Source of the DNA: Setoptus koraiensis
Lineage: Eukaryota > Animalia > Arthropoda
DNA length: 64,000 bases
Assembly: GCA_048013815.1 (NCBI GenBank)
Contig: CM106586.1
Location: 2,046,001-2,110,000, forward strand
Reading direction: 5' to 3'
Shown: piece by piece, positions 1,373-16,512 of the stretch
Position numbering within the stretch: position 1 is the stretch's first letter
Layout of the letters: each line of letters starts with the position of its first letter
Position numbers and translations under genes: made by a program
The notes under the pieces: model-generated
Databases searched by the model: none
The model's input: the letters and a program-made list of their open reading frames with translations, nothing else
Told to the model about the DNA's origin: nothing

Positions 1373-1900
1373 TACTGAGCTGTTATACACATTCAGTGTT
1401 TACTGGGTACAGTTCATATTCCAACACACACGAACACACAAACCAATGAGCAATTGAAGACAATGCCTCAAGCGGACCAATTAACGCTATCGGGGCAACT
1501 CTGGACAATTTGGCGATAAATGCGAGAAATCCGAACAAACAGTCGACGAAACTGATGATCAGATTGCTAACGCCGACACGATAAACAGAGCAATCAGGCC
1601 AACGTACTCATATATACTTTAAATCCTATCTTACTTAGCATCATTGAGTGGGTCCTGGGTGTGAGGGCCATGGTTAAAATATCGGCTTTCTGGTCTTCTG
1701 ATTTGATATACTCTAGTCTGAATTCTCCTTTGTTAAATCTCTCTCTCACGTAGTGTACCTTGAGATCGATGTGCTTTGTTTTGCCGTGGAACTCAGGGTT
1801 TTTAATGAGCCGGAGAGCCGATTGGTTATCTATAAATAGTGTTGGTTGTCTGGTTTTTAAACCAAGTTCTCTAAACAGTGAGTTTAACCACGTAAGTTCA
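1365..1900 (-). mobile_element. Ty1/copia element B: RNase H C-terminus, 3' region and probable start of an LTR (TGTTGGAATATG at ~1425)
   Basis: Minus translation ELTWLNSLFRELG...FIDNQSALRLIKNPEFHGKTKHIDLKVHYVRE...KADILTMAL; differs from element A, so a separate copy. The LTR call is tentative. Confidence 0.85.
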
Positions 1901-2410: not shown

Positions 2411-2503
2411 CACTTGTCAGGATTTCGAATTTTCAATTTCGAATTGTTACCACCGAACTTCGAACACTGAACCACGAACATCGACGGAGCAGATGAAAAT
2501 ATT
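2411..2503 (+). repeat. TTCGAA-rich degenerate minisatellite (repeat C), copy 1
   Basis: Units like TTCGAATTGTTACCACCGAAC, also seen at 10520-10742 and 11609-11690. Confidence 0.7.
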
Positions 2504-3496
2504 GGGTGTCCTTCGGAATACGTACCAAGCCCGATTTCCTTCAAACTCCACAAAGGGGCCCCGAATGGGCCCCAGAGAACGTTGTTGATGGTCCGGAAGT
2601 GCGGAAATTCCTACTTCCGGAAATATAGAAAAATTCATTTTTCGGGCCTCAGAGGAGCCTCAGACCTGAAATTTTTGCATGTCTGTATAGATCTCGATAG
2701 AAGCATTGTGATTGTTGTCAATACCAAGATGAGTGACAGCCGGTTCGCTGGATATTCATAAATTACCTCATCAGTCACTTCCGGTTTGAGAAATATCGCA
2801 CTTAGTCTGGTTTGGTCGGCTCTCTCGCTAGATAAGGAACGCAACTCATATACAAGAATGAACGAAACCCGGTCCGATCGCGGGCCCCGCCCACTCGACT
2901 CCCAGTCCTCGGGAAGAATCTTTTTTGGTTTGGTGGCCGTCAGTCGTCCCGCCGGAGGCCGCAGGCCGTAGGCGTGGACGACTGGAGGCCGAACCCCTCC
3001 TCGGGCACGGCCCAAGATGCATGGAAGACGGAGGGGCTATTGTACTGCATTGAACCCTGGCCCTGAACCTTTATTAGTAGGAGGCCTGGCCGAGGCTAGG
3101 ACATCAGACTTCGCATGGGGTGGTATTCTTTTCTGGTGGTAAAACCGCAAAAGTTTGGGGATATATCCGTTTATTGATTATGCGCTGTTTCAATTCGTGC
3201 CGTGCGCATTGGTCATGCCTCTTAGGTTTGACCGCTTTTATCTTCTACCTGGAGCTTCTAGGTACAATCTACCCTCGGTATGAAGACGTTACTACCCTAC
3301 CCGAAGTCCGTGCGGGTGGGTACGGCCGATTATACCGTCAATATGCCCTCAAATACCCTCGAATACCCAGAATACCCTCGGTAACGAAGAATTTCCGCAC
3401 TTCCGGAATACCTTTTCCGGTCTCAGGGCACCATAATCTACCCAAAAATACCCAAAATACCCAAATTGGACGTGGTACGTATTCCGAAGAACAACC
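2504..3496 (+). mobile_element. Non-autonomous DNA transposon, family B copy 1 (GG..CC ends)
   Basis: Left end GGGTGTCCTTCGGAATACGTACCA; right end (rc) GGTTGTTCTTCGGAATACGTACCA. Collinear with B2. Flanks AAAATATT / AAAATCTG match 6 of 8 (degenerate TSD). Confidence 0.85.
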
Positions 3497-3679: not shown

Positions 3680-4790
3680 AATTTTGTACGCAAGCAGTCA
3701 ACATGTGTATCTAGCTATATTGAAAATCTGAGGCACGTAGATCTTTTCTCCCAAGTCTCGCGGACTCGCTTCAAATAGCTCATTCGGGTGTTCTTGCGAT
3801 TAGGTCCCAGCGCCGATCATCACGAAACTTGACACACGGGCCCCGCAGGGGCCCCACATCATGGATTAGGTGGTCCGGAAGTGCGGAAACTTCTGGTTCC
3901 GGTTTTACATGAAGTTAAAGCTAGAGCTCTGAACATTGAGAATCAGGTAGATGACCTCCAGCGGAGCAGGATGGAATCTAAATCAATCCGGTATCACTTC
4001 CGGTTTGCTAGATATCAAGGTTCAACTGAAATTAGAGGTGCGGCCGGGCCTGTGCGGTTGCGGCAAGCGGGCCCATACTGTGCACAGACTGCGCAACACC
4101 ATGTATTAGCATGTAATTCAGTTGTTCCTACTTGTCTCATCCTTATTTTTTATTCGCCCCTTCATTTGTGGGTGGATTGCAGTCATGTAAGCGGAGGGTA
4201 GAGGGCGCAGCCCGAAACCCGAAGCGCTCATCAACCCTACCCGAAGGGTTCCCGTCGCACGCAGTCGTCGCGGGAGCGGCGACGGAGATGTGACGGCCTC
4301 CAGAATACGAGGCCGAAGGCCGAGTTCTAAGAACAATTGCAGGCTCATCCCTGAGTGTAGCGAAGCATGAATTTGGCAATTTCCGGTCTCTCAACTCTTG
4401 GAATATCGCTATAACCAGAGAACCGGAAGTGGTAAAGAGCTAAAACTTATGTCATTGTGTTGATCGTCATCTGGAACGTCATTCTGATGAGTTTCAACTC
4501 TCTAGAAGCAACTTAAGGTAAAACCGGAACCGGAAGTTTCCGCACTTCCGGACCACTTTTCCTGATGGTTTTGGGTCAAGATGAACCTGTACCGGAAGTT
4601 TCATCATAATCGGCGCTGGGACCTAATCGCTAGAACAACCGCTCATTCATACATTGAAGTAGCAAACAACATAGATCGTGCGTCTTACAGCACATACTGT
4701 GCCATCGCCCTCGGTGTACTTATCTAGATGGTTATCTCCGACATGTCATTACATACTCGCTTCTATATTCTTATCATACTTGTCCATCCA
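3680..4790 (+). repeat. Dispersed repeat D, split by element E1; inverted copy at ~10255-10430
   Basis: TACGCAAGCAGTCAACATGTGTATC (~3690) and TTATCTCCGACATGTCATTACATACTCGC (~4735) match the reverse complement of 10255-10430. Confidence 0.6.
3786..4640 (+). mobile_element. Non-autonomous DNA transposon, family E copy 1
   Basis: Perfect 8-bp TSD GCTCATTC (3778-3785, 4641-4648); ~45-bp imperfect TIRs with core GCGATTAGGTCCCAGCGCCGAT; subterminal CCGGAAGTGCGGAAACTT boxes. Confidence 0.92.
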
Positions 4791-4826: not shown

Positions 4827-7010
4827 TCACTTGTTTAAACGCGATACATGGGCGGTAATTCGTTGTTGTCTCTTGCGCTCTGCTCCTGCGTATTCTAGCA
4901 CATAGATGTCGCGTGGCTTCCTCACTATCACTTCGTACAGACCGACAAACTTTTCTACAAACTTCACTGAGCCTCTGTTTGCCCGAGGCTCAAAATAGAC
5001 CCTGACTATCTCACCAAGTTGGAAGCTCGCATCCATGTGGTGACTGTCGTGAATTTTTTTGGCTGCTCTATTTGTTTTCGTTGTCGATTCGGCGGCTGCT
5101 TTGCGAATCATTTCGAGCCTCGTGCTTAGTGACTCGTAGTAATTGGTTTCGTCGTCAAATGCGCTGATGGGCTCGTTTGGCAGCCGTAGCCGTCTCCCGA
5201 AGAGTATCTCGTATGGCGAGAATTTAGTTGTTGTGTGGCGGATGGCGTTGGTGCTTAGTATGCTCATGTCGACTTGCTCGTCCCAGTTTGATGAGCCGTC
5301 GATTGCCATAGCTAGTTTATCTTTGAAAGATTGTATAGCCCGCTCCACCACCGCGTTTCCTTGGTGGTGGTGTGGCGTAGATAGTTGCAACTCTGCTCCC
5401 AGTGAACCGAGTGTTTGCTTTACGACCTCTGCCCTAAAACAACTCGCGTTGTCCGCCAGGAACATTAGTGGGACCCCGTGGTACGCCACTATTTGTTCTT
5501 TGATAAACTTAATTACTGTTTTTGCTGATGTTGTCGCTACAGCCTGTGCAAACACGAACTTGCTGAAGACGTCGATGCCTATCAACACATGTCGGTTTGC
5601 ATTCGGGGTGTTGTAGCGAATAGTGCCACACTCAGATTTCCACCAAACTTCACACATGGGGCCCTTGGGGCCCCCAAACAACGGATTCGCTGGTCCGGAA
5701 GTGCGGAAACTTCCGGTTCTGGTTTTACACAAAATTCAAGCTAGAGCTATGGAACTTGATATGCAGCAGGATATGAACATTCTGAGTACAATGGAGTTCA
5801 TTTTACGTGTGTGCGGCTTCCGGTTGCGGAGATATTCAGGAAAAACAGCGCGGGTATCCCGCTCGGGACGAAACATCCGCGCGCACGAGTAAATACGTGC
5901 GCCCTAGAGGCTCCGATATGTCGCCACACAAGATGGCACAGCGCTACATCAGTGCTTATGTTCCGAGGCTTTTAACATTTCTTCTAGTCTCTTACTCTCG
6001 TCTATGGTTTGCAGTCATGTGAGCGGAGGGCTGAGGGCGAAGCCAGAAACCCGAAACCCGAAGCGCTCATCAACCCTACCCGAAGGGTTCCCGTCGCACG
6101 CAGTCGTCGCGGGAGCGACGACGGAGATGTGACGGCCTCCAAATTACGAGGCCGCAGGCCGAATTCTCAGACCCACCGCAGGTTCATCCCCGAGTGCAGC
6201 GAAGCTGAAATTCGTCAACTTCCGGTCTTCCTGACCAATAAATATGCCGATATCTCGAGAACCGGAAGTCGCACCGAGCTGAAAATTATGCCATTGTATT
6301 CAGCGTCCTTTGGAAGGCTAGTATGGTGATTTTCAGACCTCTAGCTCTAACTTGAGGTAAAACCAGAACCGGAAGTTTCCGCACTTCCGGACCACTTTTT
6401 TCGTTCTATTGAGGTCAATATGAACCTATACCGAAAGTTTCATCAGAATCTGAGTGTGGCACTATTCGCTACAACAACCTGCATTCGTTGTCTCCGGCAG
6501 TGGTCCGAGGAAATCTAGGGCGATCATTTGCATCGGTTCGTGCACATTGAACGAGTGCATGAGGCCCTGTGGTGCCTTTATGGGCACCTCAAATCGCTGG
6601 CAGACGATGCACTCTTTGACGTTCTTCGCCACGTCTTCTTTGAGATTTTTCCAGTATTACTTGGCTTTCACAAGGTTTTGCGTTCGGTCGATCCCTGGAT
6701 GGCCATTGCTGTGGCTGTCCTTCATGACCTGTTCTCTGTAATTTATTGGCACATACAAAAGGCCGTTTTTGTATATGTACCCGTTGTCAATCCTTATCGA
6801 CGTGTCGTTGCCGACGTTCGCCGTCAGCTCGACTGCCTCCGCGTCTGCGTCATAGGACTTGCGATAGTCGGCTAACGGTACCAGTACAAAGCAAAATCTG
6901 TCGTCGTCCAGATTATCTTTGTACTGGCACTGTGGCTGGCGCGTCAGGCAGTCGGCCTCGCAGTGCTTTTCGCCAGATTGGTGCTTTATGTTTAATTTGT
7001 ACTCTGGAGA
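4827..7010 (-). mobile_element. Ty3/gypsy pol fragment (RNase H end + integrase), split by E2, one in-frame stop
   Basis: KHQSGEKHCEADCLTR; zinc finger HSNGHPG...CIVC; IALDFLGPLP joins in frame across E2 to NRHVLIGIDVFSK, LADNASCF, HHQGNAVVER, and GPY/F-like FVGLYEV. TAA at ~6657-6659. Confidence 0.93.
5606..6479 (+). mobile_element. Family E copy 2, inserted in the gypsy integrase
   Basis: Perfect TSD TGCATTCG (5598-5605, 6480-6487); TIR core GTAGCGAATAGTGCCACACTCAGATT at both ends. Confidence 0.93.
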
Positions 7011-7044
7011 TAGTTTCTTGCGTAGTAATGTGTGACAGACACGA

Positions 7045-7300
7045 AAAATTGATCAGACCTGCACAGATTGTGGATGGCATAGTGCTAGCTTTCTCTAGGA
7101 AGTTTCAGGGATTTATCCTGGTGAGAACGATTTCGAAAATGGCTCATACTCAATTACCCCTTGTGCCCTAAAATGGCCTATGGCGCCAATACCAGAAACA
7201 GAAAATTGATTAGACTTGCACAGATCGTGTATGGCACAGTGCTAGCTGTCTCTAGGAAGTTTCAAGAATTTATCCTGGTGGGAACAGTTTCAACAATGGA
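7045..7300 (+). repeat. Diverged ~100-bp direct repeat (period ~157 bp), each copy ending in an ATG
   Basis: AAAATTGATCAGACCTGCACAGATTGTGGATGGCATAGTGCTAGC...AAAATGG versus AAAATTGATTAGACTTGCACAGATCGTGTATGGCACAGTGCTAGC...ACAATGG. Confidence 0.8.
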
Positions 7301-10115
7301 TAGCTTCGCAACCAGTAGTATTAGCGATGCTTGCGACGAAATAGTCACACCACAGGTGGCTCCTGATGGTGCAGAGAGAGACCAAAATGTATATAATCCT
7401 GTAAATAATGATGTAAATACTGTTAGTGATGTGCAGATGGCTCCTGCAACATCCGAGACGCAAGGTGCTACAGCAGCAGATGGATCTAGTGACCAACCCA
7501 CCACTAGCAGGGGTTCTTCTCCTCATACGAAAGACCCGTCTATGGCCAGAAAAGCCGCGAAGGCCGATCCAAGTGATCCCGATTATTTTTGGATCTCTCC
7601 CTTGTACAACAATAATCCACTTAACGTGGCATTTAATAGAGTTTCCATGCTTAGTCAACCTGTGAATGATTTGACCGATGATCTCTGCGATAACTTCGCT
7701 CTGATGGCTCACAATTATTTCAATAGTCCCGAGCTCAGGAAGGATCTTGATGTCGGCTATGAGCATGTAAGAACAGTAAGGTTTATGCCCATTCACACCT
7801 TCTGAAAGCCAGTAGATCCGATATTGACGAAGCACTATGATTGCCTTTGCTGGCTCATACGTGACGGCCGGAGCCGTGCAGACCCGTGCCTTGTCTGTTG
7901 CTTCTATGGTGAACATCATGTTGGTTGGCGTGAGAAGATAGGTGCCAGATTTAAGCGTGGGCGACCAACACCAGGCGGTCAAACAATACTCCAACTTGTA
8001 GCAATAATAGGCACAGTCTCCACGCCCATGCTTTATAATATACCGGTGCGGATGAGAGACGCAATATCTCTTAAGATCACGGGCGACAACACCATAACTC
8101 AAAGGCTTCAGCTTCTGAACCGACAGCCCGTTGTTCAAGCTGTGGTAGTATACTATAGCCTACTATAGTGATGGATACTTTGAGTTGGCCTGGCTCATAA
8201 GTGGATTTGAGCATTTCATGAAAATGTATGCTCCAACAAGGGAACTTGCTAGCGAGGGGCCGAGATCTGTGAAACCACATTTCGCACGCAGTCTGCCTCC
8301 AAGTGATGCATGGGTTACTACGTACATGTCTGACGACACGTATTACCAGATAAACCGCATAAGAAAGCACGTGGGTTGTTCCATCGAACAGCGACCACGC
8401 CCAATTTAGGTATTTTGGGTATTTTTGGGTAGGGTATTGTACCCTGATACCCGAACAGGTATTCCGGAAGTGCGGAAATTCTTCGTTACCGAGATACCCG
8501 AGGTACCGCATACTAGGTATATTAGGGTATTTGAGTGCATATTGACGGTATAATCGGCCGTACCTTCCCGCACGGACATCGGGTAGGGTACTAACGTTTT
8601 CATACCAAGGGTAGATTGTACCTAGAAGCTCCAGGTAGGAAATAAGAGCGGTCAAACTCAAGAGGCGTGACCAATGCACACGGCACGAATTGAAACCGTG
8701 CACAATCACTAAAGGGATATACCCCCAAACTTTTGGGATTCCACCACCGGGAAAGAGTAACACCCCAGGCGAAGCCTGACGTCATAGCCTCGGCCAGGAC
8801 TCCTACTAATAAAGGTTCAGGGCCAGAGTTCAAGGCTGTACAATAGCCCTTCCGTCTGCCATTCATCTTGGGCCCTGGCCGGAGGAGGGGTTCGGCCTCC
8901 AGTCGTCCACGCCTACGGCCTGCGGCCTCCGGCGGGACGACTGACGGCCACCAAACTAAAAAAGATGCTTCCAGAGGACTGGGAGTCGAATGGGCGGGGC
9001 CCGTGATCGGGCCGGCTTTCTATCATATAGGGTGTGGACTTGCTTTAGAGACCGTAACTAGTTGGTAGTACAGCCGAATCAGTTTTAGAACCGGAAGTGT
9101 GACTTGCGCTTATTGTAGAATATCTCGCGAACGAGTTGATGTAAAAGATTTATCTTTACGCTATCACATTGATAGCATGTGGATCTAGACAATCATACAA
9201 GAATTTGAGGTTTGAGGCCCCTCTGAGGCCCGAAAAATGCATTTTTCTATATCTCCGGAAGTAGAAATTTCCGCACTTCCGGACCACTTTATTTGTTCTT
9301 TGGGGCCCCTTTTGGGCTCCCGTGTTGAGTTTGAAGGAAATCGGGCTTGGTCGCTGTTCGATGGAACACCCAGCACGTGAGCTGTAATGCTCTTGAATAC
9401 CCAACCAGGCTGTTTGCCTATGGAGACAAGACAATTGATTCCGCAACTGTTGTTGACGAGTGCGATAGCGGGCTTGTTGATCCAAGTAGCACCTGCATAA
9501 AAGAGTGGAACCGAGCCTGTAAAGAGTATTTCAATGGATACCCGGGTTATGTCGTTAAGCCGTTGTTCGGACCTAACGTGCGTGATATTCCGGAGATGGT
9601 CACTAAAGTCGAGCCTGACTGTAAATTGATCCAGCCAGTAATTTACAATATTCATGTGTTCTGGGCCGTGTTCTCTACCCAGATCAGGTCTCAGGCCTGC
9701 ACAACAGTGGCGTTTTATAGCAACCATCAGCCCTGTATGCTCGCAGCTACGTTCTGCAAGGAACTGCGCTCCAAATTCCAAGCTCGCTACAGGTTTGGAG
9801 AACATTGTAACCTGTTCAACGACATTACATTTGGCCGGTTCTGTTATGTAATTGACAGAAGTGATAGATCTACTCCTTGTACAGGAAGGCCCTGGGAGCA
9901 ATTGATCCCTATGCTAACTATCGCATCCCGCCCAGATGCAGAGTTATTCCGAGAGTGATGACACTTCCTGCTTGATTGAGGAAGCTGTCGGCGCTGAGTT
10001 CAGGGACTACGCCAAATTTACTAGGGACGAAATCCAGTCCCTTGAAGTGCGACCGTCCATTAGGTCTGAACTGAATGACCGCTATGAGTACAGAGTGCCT
10101 GATGGTATCTTCTGA
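7296..10115 (+). pseudogene. Disrupted ~600-aa orphan ORF with a codon-aligned open antisense frame; candidate endogenous viral element
   Basis: ORF-track pieces 7161-7805, 7824-8168, 8185-8409 and 9347-9958 plus a tail (9921-10115) join after reading through one TGA (7803), removing a 10-bp duplication (8151-8160), removing B2 plus one TSD, and one +1 shift near 9915. No protein family recognised. Confidence 0.7.
8374..9371 (-). mobile_element. Family B copy 2, inserted in the orphan ORF
   Basis: Perfect TSD AGCACGTG (8366-8373, 9372-9379); TIR core TTCCATCGAACAGCGACCA at both ends; interior is the reverse complement of B1. Confidence 0.93.
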
Positions 10116-10254
10116 GCAACGGCATCCATATTGCCATCATATGTGAATAATTTTGTAAGCTCTCCTAGCCAGAGAGTACGCGTTACCCCTGGCCAGGGAA
10201 TGCTTATAGTTCAATACATGTACACTTTTCCCATCAATATATAAATGAACATAA

Positions 10255-10430
10255 CCAAAGGATAGACAAGTATCGTTGGAATATGGATGCGAGCATGTGA
10301 CAACATGTCGGAGATAAACATCTATGCCTGTCAGATCAGAGTAGCCGAAAAGATGACAGATAAAATACAAGTTCTCCAAATTCCTATCGCAGCATGATAC
10401 ACATGTCGATTGCTTGCGTACGGAATTTAG
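10255..10430 (-). repeat. Dispersed repeat D, inverted copy
   Basis: Reverse complement aligns by eye to 3690-3740 and 4730-4790. Confidence 0.55.
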
Positions 10431-10519
10431 TAGGATTCTAATGGTCAGTTTCGCCACAATGATTAATTTAGTTAGACACACCAATAAGTCGATGGCGCAC
10501 ACTTGGTTATAGTGCATCA

Positions 10520-11690
10520 ATTTCGAAGTTCGAATTGTGACCATCGAACTCCGACCATCGAACACTGACCATTGAACATCGAACGTGCAGATGAAACAAT
10601 CATCATGAATTCGAATTTTCAATTTCGAATTCGAATTCCGACATTCGAAATGTGACCACAGAACTTCGAACTGTTACCACCAAACTTCGAATTTTGACCA
10701 TCGAACTCTGTACAAGCACCTGGAACTGGTATCGGAAATTCGGGTTGTTGTAGCGATTAGGTCCCAGCGCCGATCATGATGAAACTTTCGGTACAGGTTC
10801 ATCTTGACCCAGAACCATTGGAAAAAGTGGTCTGGAAATGCGGAAACTTCCGGTTCCGGTTTTACCTAAAGTTGCTTCTAGAGAGTTAAAACTCACCAGA
10901 CTGACATTCTAGATGACGATTAACAGGATGACATAACTTTCAGCACTTTACCACTTCCTGTTCTCTGGTTATAGCGATATCTCTAGACTTGAGCGACCAG
11001 AAGTTGCCAAATTCATGCTTCGCTACACTCAGGGATGAGCCTGCAATTGTTCTTAGAACTCGACCTGCGGTCTCGTATTCTTGAGGCCGTCACATCTCCG
11101 TCGTCGCGACCGCAACGACTGCGTGCGACGGGAACCCTTCGGGTAGTGTTGATGAGCGCTTCGGGTATCGGGCTGCGCCCTCTACCTTCCGCTCACATGA
11201 CCGCAATCCAAACACAGCTGTAGGCGAGAAGAGTAGGTGAACCACCCAACAGAGAAAGAAGGGATTAAATGACTGAAACAGACGTGAATACAGAATGCAG
11301 CGAGTACGAGGCACAGGATAGGTCCGCTGACCGCAACCGCACAGGCCCGGCCTCACCCCAAAATTTGGTTTAACCTCTATATCTTATGAACCGGGAGTTA
11401 AAGCGGATTAATTCTGATCTCATCATGCTTCGCTAGGTGGCAACCATCTGATTCTGAAGTTTCGTGGCTCTATCTCAATATTTTAGCATCTCCGGAACCG
11501 GAAGTTTCCGCACTTCCGGACTGCTTAATTCATAGTATGGGGCCCCTGCGGGGCCTGTGTGTCAAGTTTCATGATGATCGGCGCTGGGACCTAGTCGCAA
11601 CAACACCCGAAATTCGATTTTTCAACCTCGAATCTCAAATTTCGAATTGTGACCACCGAATTCTGACCATCGAACTAAGAACACTGACCA
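10520..11690 (+). repeat. TTCGAA-rich minisatellite (repeat C), split by E3
   Basis: Many TTCGAA / GACCATCGAAC units at 10520-10742, resuming at 11609-11690. Confidence 0.75.
10743..11608 (-). mobile_element. Family E copy 3
   Basis: Perfect TSD GAAATTCG (10735-10742, 11609-11616); reverse complement of E1 architecture. Confidence 0.92.
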
Positions 11691-12127
11691 GTTACCTTCG
11701 GTGGGGCTACAAAATTGTGTACTTGCCCTCATTACCGGATACATGACGTCCGGTCTTGTAGTAACCGCCGTGTACATGAGGGAGCCCACAGCTTCTCGAA
11801 ACTTCACATCGGATCCGAGTGGACTATGAGACCCTAAATCTCCCTGCACATAGGCCACAGGGCAGTTGACGGGAGTACAATTCTCCATGTCGAACTTTTT
11901 CAAAATTTTGTTTATATATGATTTTTGATGCAAGAAAATCCCGTGTCCAACAGAGATATCAATCTGAAATCCTAAATAGGATGTTAACGGTACCTATCGT
12001 ATTTCAAACTCAGACATCAGTCTGTCCATGACATCTTCTATAGAGAATTTGTCACGTGCAATTAAAAGGCCGTCATCGACATAAATCGCCAATATTACCA
12101 TAGGGTCCTCCCTATAGAAGACACAAC

Positions 12128-12360: not shown

Positions 12361-12645
12361 CAATTGAAAAGGCATTCGCAGCGAGAAAACTGCAGCCCTG
12401 TCAGAAGCTGTACTTGCGCAATTGGTCGGAATTACGTTGATTGATGAACTGTCAGATCTGACAACTGCGCAATCGATGGGATGCTCCCAGTTCGCAATCA
12501 TCTGATCATCTCTTCTGTTTTCATCTTTTTGGCTGCTGCAAAAGCGAAGAGGGCTCTTATTGTTGGCATACTGGCCACAGGAGCGTAGGTTTTGGTGTAA
12601 TCGAAGCCGTAAACCTGACTGAAGCCCCGAGCCACACGACGGGCC

Positions 12646-12855
12646 GGGTGTTCTTCGGAACACGTACCAAGCCCGATTTCCTTCAAACTCCACAAAGGGG
12701 CCCCGAAGGGGCCCCAAAGAACGTTATTGATGGTCCGGAAGTGCGGAAATTCCTACTTCCGGAAATATAGAAAAATGCATTTTTCGGGCCTCAGAGGAGT
12801 CTCAGACCTGAAATTTTCGCATGTCTGTATAGATCTCGATAGGAGCATTGTGATT
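12646..12855 (+). mobile_element. One-ended (left ~210 bp) family B copy 3 inside copia C RT
   Basis: Near-identical to B1 2504-2713; copia RT peptides flank both sides with roughly 25-30 codons missing. Confidence 0.85.
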
Positions 12856-13058
12856 TTTGTTTTCTGGAGCGTCGACTATTTTCCAAACTCCATTCTTGTG
12901 CATTGAGGACATCTCCCCGTCTATGGCAACGACCCACTTGTCATAGTCGGGTCTTTGTACTACTTCTTCGTAAGATTCTGGATCACCGAGAGACGCTGCC
13001 GTGGCCATTAACTGGTGAATATTTTCCACCAAATTTGTCGTTAAAGATTCATTATCTC

Positions 13059-13881
13059 GGGTGTTGTAGCGATCAGGTCCCCACTCGGATTTCGAAGAAA
13101 CTTCACACAATGGCCACGTAGGGGCCCCATACTATGAATTTAGTATTCCGGATGCCAGGAAACTTCCGTTTCCGGAGATACAAAAATATCGAGATTGAGC
13201 TCCCAAATTTCAGAAGATGATAGGAGACACCTAGCGGAGCATAATTGCATCAAAATCAATTTTCTCTAACTTCCGGTTCGATAGATAAAGAGGTTCAAGT
13301 TGATCCGAGGTTGTGGCCGGGTCTGTGCGGTCGCGTTCAGCGGACTCATCCTGTGCCACGTATGCGCAGCACCATGCATTATCGTATTCTTCTGCCATTC
13401 CAAACATCTGTGTCTGGATTGCAGTCATGTGAGCGGAGGGTAGAGGGCGCAGCCCGATACCCGAAGCGCTCATCAACCCTACCCGAAGGGTTCCCGTCGC
13501 ACGTAGTCGTCGCGGGAGCGACGGCGGAGATGTGACGACCTCCAAATTACGAGGCCACAGGCCGAGATCTCAGACCTATCGCAGGTTCAGACCCGAGTGT
13601 AGCGAAGCTGAAATTCGTCAACTTCCGGTCTTCTAAACCTATAAATATGCCGATATTTCGGAAACCGGAAGTCGCAAAGAGCTGAAAAGTATGCCATCGT
13701 GTTCAGCGTTCTCTAAAACCTGGTCTGGTGAGCTTCAGATCTCTAGCTTCAACTTTATCTCAAACCGGAACCGGAAGTTTCCTGGCTTTCGGACTGATTT
13801 TTCCGTCTTATTTGGGTCAAGATAAACCTATACCGGAAGTTTCATCGGAATCTGGGTGGGGACCTAATCGCTACAACAACC
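13059..13881 (+). mobile_element. Family E copy 4, inserted in copia C
   Basis: Perfect TSD ATTATCTC (13051-13058, 13882-13889); removal restores ...QMRDN-ESLTTNL... in frame. Confidence 0.93.
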
Positions 13882-14969
13882 ATTATCTCTCATCTGAACA
13901 TTTCCGTCAGCACTCTGACTTATCGTTTTATGGATACACGGTTGTGAAATCGTTAATGGTCTATCTACTTGCTTAGACTTGAACGGACCGAACTTGCCAA
14001 GATTAAATTTAAGCAGACCTGACAGTTTCTTCTGTGGAGACCTTTCTTCAACAACAGACTCATCTGAACAGGACATTGTAGATGTCTCAAACACGGGTGC
14101 AGATTGTATCATATTTTGAGGTTCATTGTATCTAACTGTGTTGTTTAATTCTGAACTGTCACTCGAATTTGATTGATTTTCAATGAGCGAACTAGATTCT
14201 TGACTATCTTCTAGAAAATTACTGTTGATGTTAATTCCTTCATTGTCTTCACGATTCACCGAATTTGCTGAAGCTCGAGCTTCGAACTTATTCTTATAGC
14301 TTTGATTATAAACCACTGCCGATTCACCAAAAATTCTCAAGTTCGATACGTCTGGTTTCTTGTTGAACCATAGTTCGAATGGCGTCTTCAATTTGTTGCT
14401 ACTATTTGGTGTACGATTCAACACGTACAAGCTTGTTGCGACTGCCTCGTCCCATCATGATTTTGGGAGATTAGAGGCAATCAACAAAGTGCGAGCACAC
14501 TCGATGACCGTTCTAATGTCTCTTTCAATGTATCCATTCTGTTGATGGATGTAAGGCAATGACTTATGGTGAAGGATACCTTTGTCCAGTAAAAAATCTG
14601 ATAGACTTTTATTAACAAATTCTGTACCATTATTCGTGTTAATCTGGAGAACTGTATTACCAGTGGCGAGTTTAGCTTCAGATACCATTAGCTTTACTTG
14701 ATTGCCAAATTCAGATTTGGTTGAAACATATGCTCCCATTCTAAAGCCTGACATTTCGTCCTTACACAATGATAGATACATATTACCATTTACACTTGGA
14801 CTGCTAGTTACGATGACTGTGTCAAGATGTAAAACTTGGCCTGGTTTCTCTGCACGACTAAGATTCCTAGATGGATTCCTCTTACCAAGTGCACAGTCTG
14901 GACAACTATTAGTTTGAACATTTTCGATTTTAAGGCCGTCGACTACATTCATTTTTGCCATGTCTTGTA

Positions 14970-15222
14970 CCGTGTGGCAATTTGCCAATAGCTTGAGCTG
15001 TAGTTCAAGGAAAAACCGCTCGAGGTCGCTTTTTGTACACGCATTTTTCGCGCTTGAGATCGAATGAGCAATCGAAAAACAAATCAACAAGAAAAAAAGA
15101 AGAAAAAACGAAACATTTATCGAGACACTTCAAGCTTTTTAATGCATTTTTCGGCTGATGCGAGCGCCCCTCGCGTCTTTCTATTGAACTACAGCTCAAG
15201 CTATTGGCAAATTGCCACACGG
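14970..15222. mobile_element. 253-bp MITE, Tc1/mariner/pogo-type (TA TSD)
   Basis: Perfect ~39-bp TIR CCGTGTGGCAATTTGCCAATAGCTTGAGCTGTAGTTCAA, TA on both sides; removal restores AHVSVNTIQDMAK in copia C. Confidence 0.92.
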
Positions 15223-16512
15223 TATAGTATTAACTGATACATGAGCAAATCTTTTGTGCCAGTTTGAAATCGTTGTTGCCAGCATGGCAACAGGTCTACT
15301 TGGAACGACTATTTTCAAGTCAAGCATATAGACCCCATCCTTCAGTATTCCACGTAACACGGTATTTTGCTTTTTCATCAACTTCACATCATCTTTACTG
15401 TACTTAACTTCTATATCCTGCTGAGTTGCTGAACGTATCGAAAATAGGTTGGTAACCAACTTTGGGACATGATACACATTTTCTATAATACCAGCAGTTG
15501 ACATTATTCTACCTTGACCAATTGCAGACATACATGCGCCATTACCTAAACGTATTTCCAACTCCTTCTCAAAAGGTTTATACACTGTGAACCAGTGGAG
15601 GTTTGGTGTCATGTGATTGCTACAACCACTATCTGCAACCCAAACTTCTTTGGTTAATTCTGTTGACGTAGCTACTGCCATAAACGATACAGGGCTTCCT
15701 CCAGTACTTGGCCCCTGACCATCCATCTTCTTGTTTTTGAGTTTGTAGCAATCTCGAATAATATGGCCTGGCTTTTTACAGTAAAAACAAGATCTTACTG
15801 AACTTCCAGGTTGCCCTGATGCAGTAGCAACCAAAGCTATCGGCTCTGTTTCCTTTTTAAGTGTTCGTGAATGTGCTATCACGTTAGCAATTAAATGATT
15901 CAATGTTCGTTCCGTTGGAGTCAATAACTTGAAGGCAACTACAAAACTAACAAAACCACTTGGTAGAGCGTTCATTATGATGCTTATTAGGGCATCATCT
16001 GAGACCTGTTCTCCCAGTAACTTCAATTTGCTTGCTATTGTCTGTATCTCCATGAGAGATTTAGCTGCATCTATTGTTTTATCAATTCTATACGAGTGCA
16101 ACTTGCTGAGTAACTCTTGCTTTTCATACGTGGTTTTGTTTTCAAAAATTATTTCTAAACGCTTCCATACATCGTAGGCATTATCACATCCCACCACTAA
16201 GGCCATGTTATCCTCACTTAAAGCAGACCCTATAAGCGCTAGCGCTTGTCGATTTGCAACAACATCATCCACTCGCTCTGTTACTGCATCATAGATGAAT
16301 TTTGCCTTCAATATATTTTCAAGTTGCCACTTCCAAGTTACATAATTATCTTCCCTAAGTTTGTCGATTTTGAAGTCACATTTTAAATCACTCGAATGTC
16401 GACCGGCTAAGACATTCTGAAGAGGTGCATCTTCTTCTTCTGAATCTTGCAAATTTAACTGATCCATCTTGATAATCACTAATCAAACCTTTTAATTTCT
16501 ATGTAAGGTACG

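Follow-up and report, generated by a model that had tools for sequence, protein, structure and literature searches.

The stretch of Setoptus koraiensis DNA that was analysed (64,000 nucleotides, here called the window) holds a gene that is broken into five colinear pieces on the plus strand. An intact relative of 661 amino acids, P0001, aligns over all of them with 37-48 % identity, and because this alignment is colinear the pieces are those of one gene. Piece 1 (7296 to 7802) encodes an acidic, low-complexity N-terminus followed by the start of a conserved middle region, and closes at an in-frame sense stop at 7803-7805. Piece 2 (7806 to 8147) continues in the same frame and is 56 % identical to P0001; together the two align to P0001 residues ~70-334. 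Piece 3 (8164 to 8370) corresponds to residues 342-426 (45 % identity), piece 4 (9380 to 9913), which contains a predicted CE-clan (Ulp1/adenain-like) protease-fold domain, to residues 413-587 (38 %), and piece 5 (9921 to 10115) to residues 616-659 (45 %), its stop being near the end of P0001. The initial annotation proposed that a sense ORF of ~600 amino acids could be rebuilt here, which agrees with the 594 codons counted and with the colinearity of P0001. The N-terminus of P0001 is ~80 residues longer than that of the window gene, and since the ATG of piece 1 overlaps a repeat junction, the true start is uncertain.

Pieces 2 and 3 are separated by a frame break (8151 to 8168) where 8 nt are directly repeated at a spacing of 10 nt, resembling the footprint that may remain when an element with a target duplication of 8 nt is excised. 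It is gap-free in contigs of runs X1, X2, X3 and X4. The second frame break (9914 to 9920), also without a gap when compared with contigs of X1 and X2, was placed using the antisense stops and a conserved proline; by homology alone it could lie anywhere in 9913-9966. With its four breaks, the window copy now makes no full protein. Short-read contigs of X1, X2 and X4 are gap-free over the gene pieces covered, so the gene is no assembly artefact, and the chimeric assembly that the initial annotation had kept in mind is not borne out by these contigs. Piece 5 is followed by a unique tail of 144 nt (10116 to 10259, plus strand), a putative 3' untranslated region. The tail has a modest hairpin (fold z -2.43, with equal stability in 1 of 200 shuffles) and one antisense stop in the aligned frame, at 10137. 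It gave no Rfam match, and no second gene was seen in it.

Between pieces 3 and 4 lies a non-autonomous TIR element (MITE) of 998 nt (8374 to 9371), with inverted ends of ~40 nt and copies of its 8-nt target duplication at 8366-8373 and 9372-9379. Further copies of the MITE are found in the window at 2503-3476 and 12639-12860. A contig joint bypassing the element was present in all 4 runs examined, and the insertion is polymorphic. The unique sequence at the locus spans 2968 nt, of which 1006 nt are insertion, and the gene is at least 1.96 kb long. It is intronless, and its depth is low, like that of the neighbouring unique DNA. The left flank (7036 to 7291), outside the gene, consists of two units of a very high-copy tandem repeat with 157-nt spacing, seen as a direct repeat at 7036-7142/7193-7299; its summed depth is 1e4-3e5 compared to ~130 in the gene, and contigs of the repeat family diverge after 7291. 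The right flank (10260 to 10511) is a high-copy repeat that is unrelated to the left flank and has an inverted relative at 3596-3749/4725-4789. Neither a target duplication around the gene nor terminal inverted repeats of its own were found. The idea that the flanks are the terminal repeats of one element was rejected, as they are only 72-82 % alike and high-copy, compared to ~1 % decay of the gene. The surroundings contain copia and gypsy-type debris, and the neighbouring integrase, which is encoded on the opposite strand beyond a satellite-like repeat, shows ordinary codon use. No contig of runs X9 and X11, from other organisms, was placed on the gene, which is not proof of absence, and none of the runs listed as holding the sequence is RNA.

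The most striking property of the gene is its codon use. When the five pieces were counted in place (7296-7802, 7806-8147, 8164-8370, 9380-9913 and 9921-10112), CTA, TTA and TCA did not occur once among the 594 codons, which include 35 Leu and 46 Ser codons, exactly the numbers counted by hand in the initial annotation. The expected number was 23.6 with host codon usage (P 6e-13), 24.7 with the usage of neighbouring transposable elements and 17.8 with the third-position make-up of the element itself (P 4e-10). Synonymous shuffling, suggested earlier as a way to separate avoidance from codon bias, reached zero in 0 of 20,000 resamplings, the minimum being 7. The two non-aligned frames contain 38 and 28 such triplets, each out of 589. 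A- and T-ending codons are otherwise common, as had been noted: ATA, GTA, ACA, CCA and GCA are all frequent, and GC3 is 47.5 %. In the host and transposable element genes of the window, 25-36 % of the Leu/Ser codons are CTA, TTA or TCA. Across the 64-kb window, the longest runs free of all six relevant codons (193, 170 and 118 codons, the first taking in 15 codons of the MITE end) are the gene pieces, and the longest elsewhere is 91 codons. If frame break 2 is placed late in 9913-9966, two avoided codons fall inside the gene compared to 17.8 expected (Poisson probability, calculated by hand, ~3e-6). The codon avoidance on the gene is real, and a GC3 of 47 % does not account for it.

The codon-aligned reverse frame (7293 to 10136, minus strand) is stop-free over every gene piece. 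Stop-to-stop minus-strand ORFs at 7290-8159, 8077-8781, 9185-9913 and 9918-10136 are codon-aligned with plus-strand ORFs at 7125-7805/7806-8168, 8149-8409, 9335-9958 and 9918-10115, which confirms the earlier observation of an aligned minus-strand ORF over each piece, although the right-hand coordinates noted then fall somewhat short of the stop-to-stop limits. At 7290, the antisense stop coincides with the junction to the flanking repeat and thus need not be the natural end of the reverse frame. No aligned antisense ATG was found near the start of this frame; the first one (9924-9926) is 70 codons into it, and the end of the frame may be missing or mutated. The reverse translation had no Pfam match, and a PH/GRAM identity was rejected, the best atlas score (0.82) being at chance level.

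A search for other copies, also suggested with the initial annotation, revealed a second copy of the gene, ~85 % alike and with different lesions, in two runs. The 40 listed differences between the copies are distributed as 27 at third, 10 at first and 3 at second codon positions (P 1e-5), and dN/dS is about 0.085-0.09, supporting purifying selection on the forward protein. As the divergence is biased to third positions and the lesions differ, the copies diverged under selection before they decayed. Such a history would fit separate integration events fed by a population that replicates outside the host genome. Over the 91 codons of the second copy that were compared, a single antisense stop occurs, as could result from decay or equally from a lack of codon avoidance. 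Decay of the window copy since integration was estimated at ~0.9 % (95 % range 0.02-5 %).

Four relatives were found, all in Logan only and on one contig each, of 2103-3577 nt. The contigs of P0001 extend ~1.3-1.6 kb beyond the ORF, and in P0003 the C-terminal domain is fused to ~370 further residues. A small protein family thus exists. No homology to named viruses was found in the protein, virus and metagenome searches. With Pfam, eight window translations gave only DUF6561 (E 0.04); a word-indexed protein search gave 0 of 71 candidates for piece 4 and 0 of 47 for piece 2 ('longer' only), and the search with alignment A1 returned P0001 as the sole match of 7991 scored. IMG/VR, metagenomes, prokaryote genomes and INPHARED (the last by tblastn) yielded no relatives in searches where exact short peptides are needed and blanks are weak, and PDB sequence searches gave nothing under E 0.1. 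P0001-P0003 contain no transposase, integrase, polymerase or capsid according to Pfam, PHROGs and NCBIfam.

The statement in the initial annotation that no protein family could be recognised has been superseded by these relatives and by a predicted fold. In a model of P0001 residues 439-599, CE-type structures fill the top 27 of the 50 VIA rows (Z 8.0-3.8), the first unrelated structure having Z 3.7. The best match was SseL (Z 8.0, rmsd 4.2, 138 aligned residues), and Ulp1 had Z 5.9; the clan labels follow PMC10318531 in part. Mean pLDDT of the P0001 model is 39, with 60-87 across most of the domain. Foldseek rows for the domain are weak (E 0.015-0.07) and include adomavirus, iridovirus and giant-virus proteases. 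A protease fold of the CE clan (Ulp1/adenain) is thus predicted for the C-terminal domain of P0001. H502, H526 and C579 of P0001 are invariant in the five sequences, with His preceding Cys; in piece 4 the invariant His is at 9653-9655, the second His at 9725-9727 and the Cys at 9878-9880. No conserved acid was seen after the strand following the His in the aligned sequences. Neither the window translations nor the relatives matched Pfam C48, C5 or C57, and a single-sequence model of piece 4 (pLDDT 42.8) had no meaningful match in BFVD, PDB or VIA. Two other assignments were rejected: an AID/APOBEC-like deaminase (atlas lead 0.76-0.85), since the Glu of HxE is lacking and P0001-P0003 do not share the PC..C pair, and three CE-like domains formed by internal repeat, for which hhalign probabilities were under 1 %. 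The predicted fold is like that of Ulp1/SENP (C48), adenain (C5), poxvirus I7L (C57), ASFV pS273R, SseL/ElaD, OtDUB and the CidB DUB. Unlike in these proteases, identity is 7-12 %, no HMM matches, the acidic residue is missing, the Cys is followed by xxxPW, and the domain sits in a protein of 530-660 amino acids with a further middle region.

In agreement with the initial annotation, no RdRp motifs were found: there is no conserved motif C, no GDD in the gene pieces and no RdRp homology. P0001 lacks the GDN/SDD triplets seen in the window pieces, and P0002 has 0 of the 8 triplets checked. The structure matches, which cover the C-terminal domain (model residues 1-435 being too poor), include no RdRp fold. 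Alphanarnavirus termini carry a 5' G-run and a 3' C-run with a 3' stem-loop; neither junction has GGGG/CCCC runs, ends that may have been lost on integration, and one C4 occurs inside the tail hairpin.

The gene shares a codon-aligned reverse frame, loss of CUA/UUA/UCA and moderate GC3 with ambigrammatic alphanarnaviruses and the second segments Culex narnavirus 1 Robin, ZJMV3 Robin and Aedes japonicus narnavirus 1 S2, as these are described in the portions of PMC7010960, PMC8316113, PMC8155312 and PMC10460169 drawn on here. In the parts of PMC7010960 considered, rORF narnaviruses avoid these codons without a GC3 explanation, and endogenised fragments of their RdRp are reported from ant, ladybird and sharpshooter genomes (section 2.9). 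In CxNV1 and ZJMV3 the forward frame is constrained and the reverse frame unconstrained (PMC8155312), a pattern that the gene matches. Like the Robin-type segments, the gene is non-RdRp with a forward frame under purifying selection; unlike them (0.8-1 kb), it is at least twice as long, at 1.96 kb or more and ~600 codons, the contigs of its relatives measure 2.1-3.6 kb, a protease-like fold is predicted in its relative, and no RdRp partner is known. In contrast to alphanarnaviruses it is seen as chromosomal DNA, and no G/C termini, reverse-frame start or sequence homology were found. It resembles arthropod non-retroviral EVEs in being intronless, decaying, surrounded by LTR-retrotransposon debris and present in more than one copy, but differs from the rORF-narnavirus RdRp EVEs in encoding no RdRp, having no known viral homologue and being recognised by its ambigrammatic codon signature.

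On balance we consider it probable, by a modest degree, that the gene was recently endogenised from an undescribed RNA virus with ambigrammatic coding, in which it was an accessory (non-polymerase) segment. Codon avoidance at GC3 47 % is the signature of rORF narnaviruses and was counted for this reading. With no homology to named viruses, no RdRp and no G/C termini, membership in the narnaviruses, or an RNA-viral nature, is not shown. Of the endogenised narna-like segment first proposed, the dual-strand-open, decayed, chromosomal and foreign-looking character stands, and the narna-like or RNA-viral status stays a proposal. Segment-sized Logan contigs, the second copy with its divergence under selection, the forward-only constraint, the intronless, low-depth locus amid retroelement debris, the lack of its own TIR or TSD and the endogenised rORF-narnavirus fragments of insects were also counted for an RNA-virus segment; the missing antisense ATG near the start of the reverse frame, the gene size compared to Robin, the known hosts of the CE-clan fold and the middling Z of the model were counted against it.

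In such a virus, the forward frame would encode a protein of ~600-660 amino acids with a disordered acidic N-terminus, the middle region and the C-terminal CE-clan fold, which could work through a His-Cys dyad, either as a deconjugase of the ubiquitin/SUMO type or as a processing protease, or might only bind, being catalytically dead. What keeps the reverse frame open would be translation and ribosome cover of the complementary strand, on the model of Culex narnavirus 1, and not a conserved protein. On at least two occasions, the reverse transcriptase of a host retroelement would have made a DNA copy of the viral RNA; the window copy would have landed in a transposon nest and decayed by ~1 %, and it may now be a template for small RNAs.

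A DNA origin is unlikely but has to be weighed most seriously among the alternatives. The gene could come from a small DNA virus, a Polinton-like element or a DNA transposon, with the CE-clan protease overlapped by a true antisense gene and both copies being dead, low-copy remnants. CE-clan folds are found in cells, DNA viruses and bacterial effectors, no RNA-virus family being among those given in the section of PMC10318531 used here, which names them as cargo of adenoviruses, poxviruses, ASFV and mavirus; Ginger1 and Mutator transposons also carry Ulp1 domains, C-terminal in a long ORF as here, in transposon-rich regions (PMC2836005, in part). The weak Foldseek rows point the same way, and purifying selection between copies also fits transposable elements. 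Unlike in Ginger1 and Mutator, no transposase domain accompanies the protease-like domain in the protein and the gene has no TIRs or TSD of its own, and no antisense ORF is described for them in that part of PMC2836005. The domain searches of P0001-P0003, the strand, separation and ordinary codon use of the nearby integrase, the blanks in IMG/VR and INPHARED and the segment-sized contigs of the relatives further argue against a DNA element.

It is quite unlikely that the gene derives from an RNA agent that became ambigrammatic independently, be it a virus not belonging to Narnaviridae or a helper-dependent satellite, possibly as a two-gene segment of ~3.3-3.6 kb; the mechanism would be that of the RNA-virus segment favoured above, with different ancestry. 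The P0003 fusion, the sequence beyond the P0001 ORF and a size and fold unlike Robin suit such a segment, whereas there is no link to any RdRp and the window tail shows no second gene. Bacterial CE-clan effectors and SENP/Ulp1 being the best structural matches, an effector gene acquired horizontally from a bacterial endosymbiont, or a retrocopy of a host Ulp1-like gene, was also considered, the openness of the antisense frame then being due to the codon use of the donor. This is highly improbable, as the host and transposable element genes of the window use the avoided codons freely, GC3 47 % cannot give the avoidance, and no prokaryote relative or Pfam C48/C5/C57 match exists in the searches. 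Chance, GC3 bias or misassembly we regard as refuted. The piece limits were indeed set at breaks after the pattern had been noticed, and pseudoambigrams exist (PMC13262655); however, P is 4e-10 or less, the frames are fixed independently by P0001, and contigs from three studies match.

If the RNA-virus segment reading is correct, a CE-clan protease may be placed in an RNA virus. To our knowledge, ambigrammatic coding in eukaryotic systems is almost confined to the RdRp segments of narnaviruses and to two or three very small Robin segments without known function. A gene twice as large, for which a fold can be assigned, an intact relative exists and two integrations into the host are seen, would carry the phenomenon into a new protein family and offer a first clue to the function of such an accessory segment. 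If instead the DNA element were true, a fully overlapping antisense frame of ~600 codons in a eukaryotic DNA element would also be unusual. Tentatively, and with more doubt than belief, we suggest that there are undescribed segmented ambigrammatic RNA viruses of arthropods with a 2-3.6 kb accessory segment encoding an Ulp1/adenain-fold deubiquitinase or deSUMOylase, whose fossils could be found by codon signature alone. Stop-anticodon avoidance can also serve to find homology-free EVEs.

The orphan gene at 7290..10136 is open on both strands, and this observation is real. Its plus strand holds the stop-to-stop ORFs 7125-7805, 7806-8168, 8149-8409, 9335-9958 and 9918-10115, and the ORF listing confirmed overlying minus-strand ORFs with identical codon boundaries (7290-8159, 8077-8781, 9185-9913 and 9918-10136), for which the initial annotation had given slightly shorter right-hand ends. 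When codons were counted in place in the five pieces (7296-7802, 7806-8147, 8164-8370, 9380-9913 and 9921-10112; a few codons at the breaks excluded), CTA, TTA and TCA were absent from all 594, as had been claimed, and the earlier hand counts of 35 leucine and 46 serine codons proved exact. The usage of 11 host ORFs in the window predicts 23.6 such codons (P 6e-13), that of 5 TE ORFs 24.7, and the third-position composition of the gene itself 17.8 (P 4e-10). The proposed synonymous shuffling gave zero in none of 20,000 resamplings of the gene's codons, and the antisense openness thus stays significant. The same triplets occur in the two non-aligned frames (38/589 and 28/589). The longest runs open on both strands in the 64 kb (193, 170 and 118 codons) are all pieces of this gene, the next being 91. 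As GC3 is 47.5 % and A-ending codons other than the avoided ones are common, a GC3-driven pseudoambigram, of the kind described in passages of PMC13262655, was ruled out.

The gene lies in a transposon nest (1.5-16.5 kb) of copia gag, integrase and RT pieces, a gypsy-type integrase and several MITE families. The unique stretch, ~7292 to ~10259, lies between a tandem repeat with a unit of ~150 nt and a second repeat unrelated to it, and no TIR or target duplication of its own was found around it. Both the ATG (7296) and the antisense stop (7290) sit across the left junction, so the gene may be truncated at each end. Summed depth over the gene, a rough guide only, was ~127-137 (runs X1/X2) compared to 111-119 in adjoining unique DNA; the flanks and the MITE reached 1e4-3e5. 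The tandem repeat (7036-7291, unit ~150-157 nt) has the top summed depth of the stretch, ~3e5 versus ~130, and is a major satellite or a transposon-borne array. A gypsy-type integrase remnant (rve, H2C2; 4827-7052, minus strand), MITE-split and of low depth, ends at this repeat beside the gene. MITE-interrupted copia fragments (gag, integrase, RT, RNase H-like) lie at 11622-11993, 13864-16482 (minus) and 1594-1900 (minus), and nested amid the copia and gypsy debris are two or more related families of MITEs, ~0.9-1 kb long, with a common subterminal motif (8374-9371, 2503-3476, 12639-12860; 3783-4640, 5600-6485, 10743-11611, 13054-13881). There is a scaffold gap of 500 N at 1901-2400. Outside the nest, host genes at 18278-63140 are long single-exon ORFs, e.g. 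an 885-aa M1 aminopeptidase, a 500-aa CDC14-like phosphatase and ORFs of 1318 and 1957 aa, pointing to a compact, intron-poor genome, putatively that of an arthropod such as a mite.

The gene is decayed. Four lesions interrupt its plus-strand frame: the codon at 7803-7805 is an in-frame stop, the frame breaks at 8151-8168, where 8 nt are directly repeated, a MITE of 998 nt with an 8-nt TSD has inserted at 8374-9371, and the frame breaks again near 9914-9920. Matching contigs came from 4 runs, which represent no more than 3 samples and 3 studies; one run may be the window's own source. The frame breaks lie without a gap in the contigs covering them, and an allele lacking the 8374-9371 insertion was present in all 4 runs, so that the MITE is polymorphic. 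One new stop in ~118 rate-weighted opportunities on both strands corresponds to a decay of ~0.9% (95% 0.02-5%). The break at 8151-8168 resembles what an element that duplicates 8 nt of its target leaves behind on excision; the MITE 200 nt downstream has a TSD of equal length, and its family may have struck the gene twice. Past the lone antisense stop at 10137, which could be a later mutation, the aligned antisense frame (10140-10673, minus) is open across the remaining unique tail into the flanking repeat.

The search for further copies, also suggested earlier, was made at 80% likeness over run contigs and yielded a second copy in X4 and X6 (two studies), ~85% alike over parts of 7515-8143; X9 and X11 gave no match. 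In the second copy an in-frame gap of 126 nt covers a stretch that the relatives P0001 and P0002 conserve, and there is an insertion at 8032-8037. Forty of the 56 differences between the copies were listed (7545-7820, positions assigned by hand), of which 27 were in third, 10 in first and 3 in second codon positions (P 1e-5); with the break codon excluded, 26 were synonymous and 13 nonsynonymous (dN/dS about 0.085). The stop at 7803-7805 is private to the window copy. The copies therefore diverged under selection on the forward protein and later broke at different sites. As a point against the viral reading, a single antisense stop falls within the 91 codons compared in the second copy; this number does not discriminate avoidance (0.1-0.45 expected with 1-5% decay) from none (1.4-2.3).

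The relatives make the pieces parts of one gene. A phmmer search with piece 4 (9380-9913) against 1.84 billion representatives gave 3 matches, P0001 (661 aa, E 1.5e-36), P0002 (529 aa, E 8e-6) and P0003 (542 aa, E 2e-5). P0001 aligns colinearly with all pieces in four blocks (residues 70-659, 37-48% identity), which fixes the reading frames independently of the antisense pattern. The four cluster members are all Logan-only, with one contig each (3297, 3577, 2103 and 3359 nt). A profile search returned P0001 alone among 7991 scored, and IMG/VR, metagenome, prokaryote-genome and phage searches found no relatives. The earlier statement that no protein family is recognisable holds in that Pfam, PHROGs and NCBIfam gave no family of note, but must give way to a small family including P0001-P0003. 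P0003 begins within the C-terminal domain, after which come ~370 unrelated residues; these match no known family, and the P0001 contigs could fit a similar second ORF. P0003 may be a polyprotein, a read-through product or a broken copy.

The C-terminal domain is predicted to have the fold of the CE clan, the Ulp1/adenain-like cysteine proteases. Modelling piece 4 from its sequence alone gave no useful information; the model of P0001 from a 9-row alignment had a mean pLDDT of 39, with 49-87 per block over 440-590. In a wide VIA search with it, the top 27 of the best 50 rows were all CE-type, all on residues 439-599: SseL (Z 8.0, rmsd 4.2, 138 aligned), OtDUB (Z 6.5), RickCE and XopD (Z 6.1), Ulp1 and the CidB DUB (Z 5.9), I7L (Z 5.4), pS273R (Z 4.9) and adenain (Z 4.2), with SENPs also listed, and the first unrelated row at Z 3.7. 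Since Z values up to 8 are middling, it is the uniformity of the list that argues for the predicted fold. Foldseek against viral models gave no row with E <0.001, several weak rows being Ulp1-like or adenain-like proteases. His502, His526, Cys579, Pro583 and Trp584 (P0001 numbering) are invariant among the 4 relatives, the window copy retains them, and their order agrees with that of the CE clan, His and then Cys. As the usual catalytic acid is missing in the family, protease activity is a prediction, and a catalytically dead binder is possible. A deaminase, an atlas lead, was ruled out as its motif is not conserved. The reverse-frame protein matched nothing in Pfam or the atlas.

The gene works like the segments of ambigrammatic narnaviruses such as CxNV1 and ZJMV3, in which, according to parts of PMC8155312, forward frames are under purifying selection and reverse frames are not; membership is a candidate assignment. 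The proposal of an endogenous narna-like sequence stands as to a decayed dual-strand element with forward selection. RdRp motifs were not found in the gene, however, and at 1.96 kb or more it is larger than Robin-type second segments, 0.8-1 kb in the passages of PMC8316113 and PMC8155312. Neither junction shows a G4 or C4 run, though the ends may have been lost on integration, and the first aligned ATG of the reverse frame comes at 9924-9926, 70 codons in, where a start may likewise be missing or mutated. A gene of a DNA virus or transposon is a less probable origin, to be given weight because CE-clan domains are typical of these (parts of PMC10318531, PMC7464072, PMC2836005), and an RNA replicon of other ancestry is quite improbable. 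We lean, with no great confidence, towards an accessory segment of an ambigrammatic RNA virus, with a deconjugating or processing product and copied into DNA at least twice, because an RNA replicon would have reason to keep its complementary strand open: in CxNV1, as parts of PMC8316113 describe, persistence requires that the reverse ORF of the RdRp segment be intact, and its translation rather than its product seems to matter.

The product of such an accessory segment would either oppose host control based on ubiquitin/SUMO or serve in the processing of viral proteins. Reverse transcription by retroelements is an established route for nrEVEs, and a retroelement reverse transcriptase would have copied the segment at least two times. 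Endogenised RdRp fragments of rORF-narnaviruses have already been reported (passages in PMC7010960). In the mainly open-access literature covered, neither an ambigrammatic segment that encodes a CE-clan fold nor an ambigrammatic EVE of non-RdRp type was seen to be reported. Relative to what is known, the new element would be a non-RdRp ambigrammatic one with a predicted CE-clan fold, residing in host DNA.
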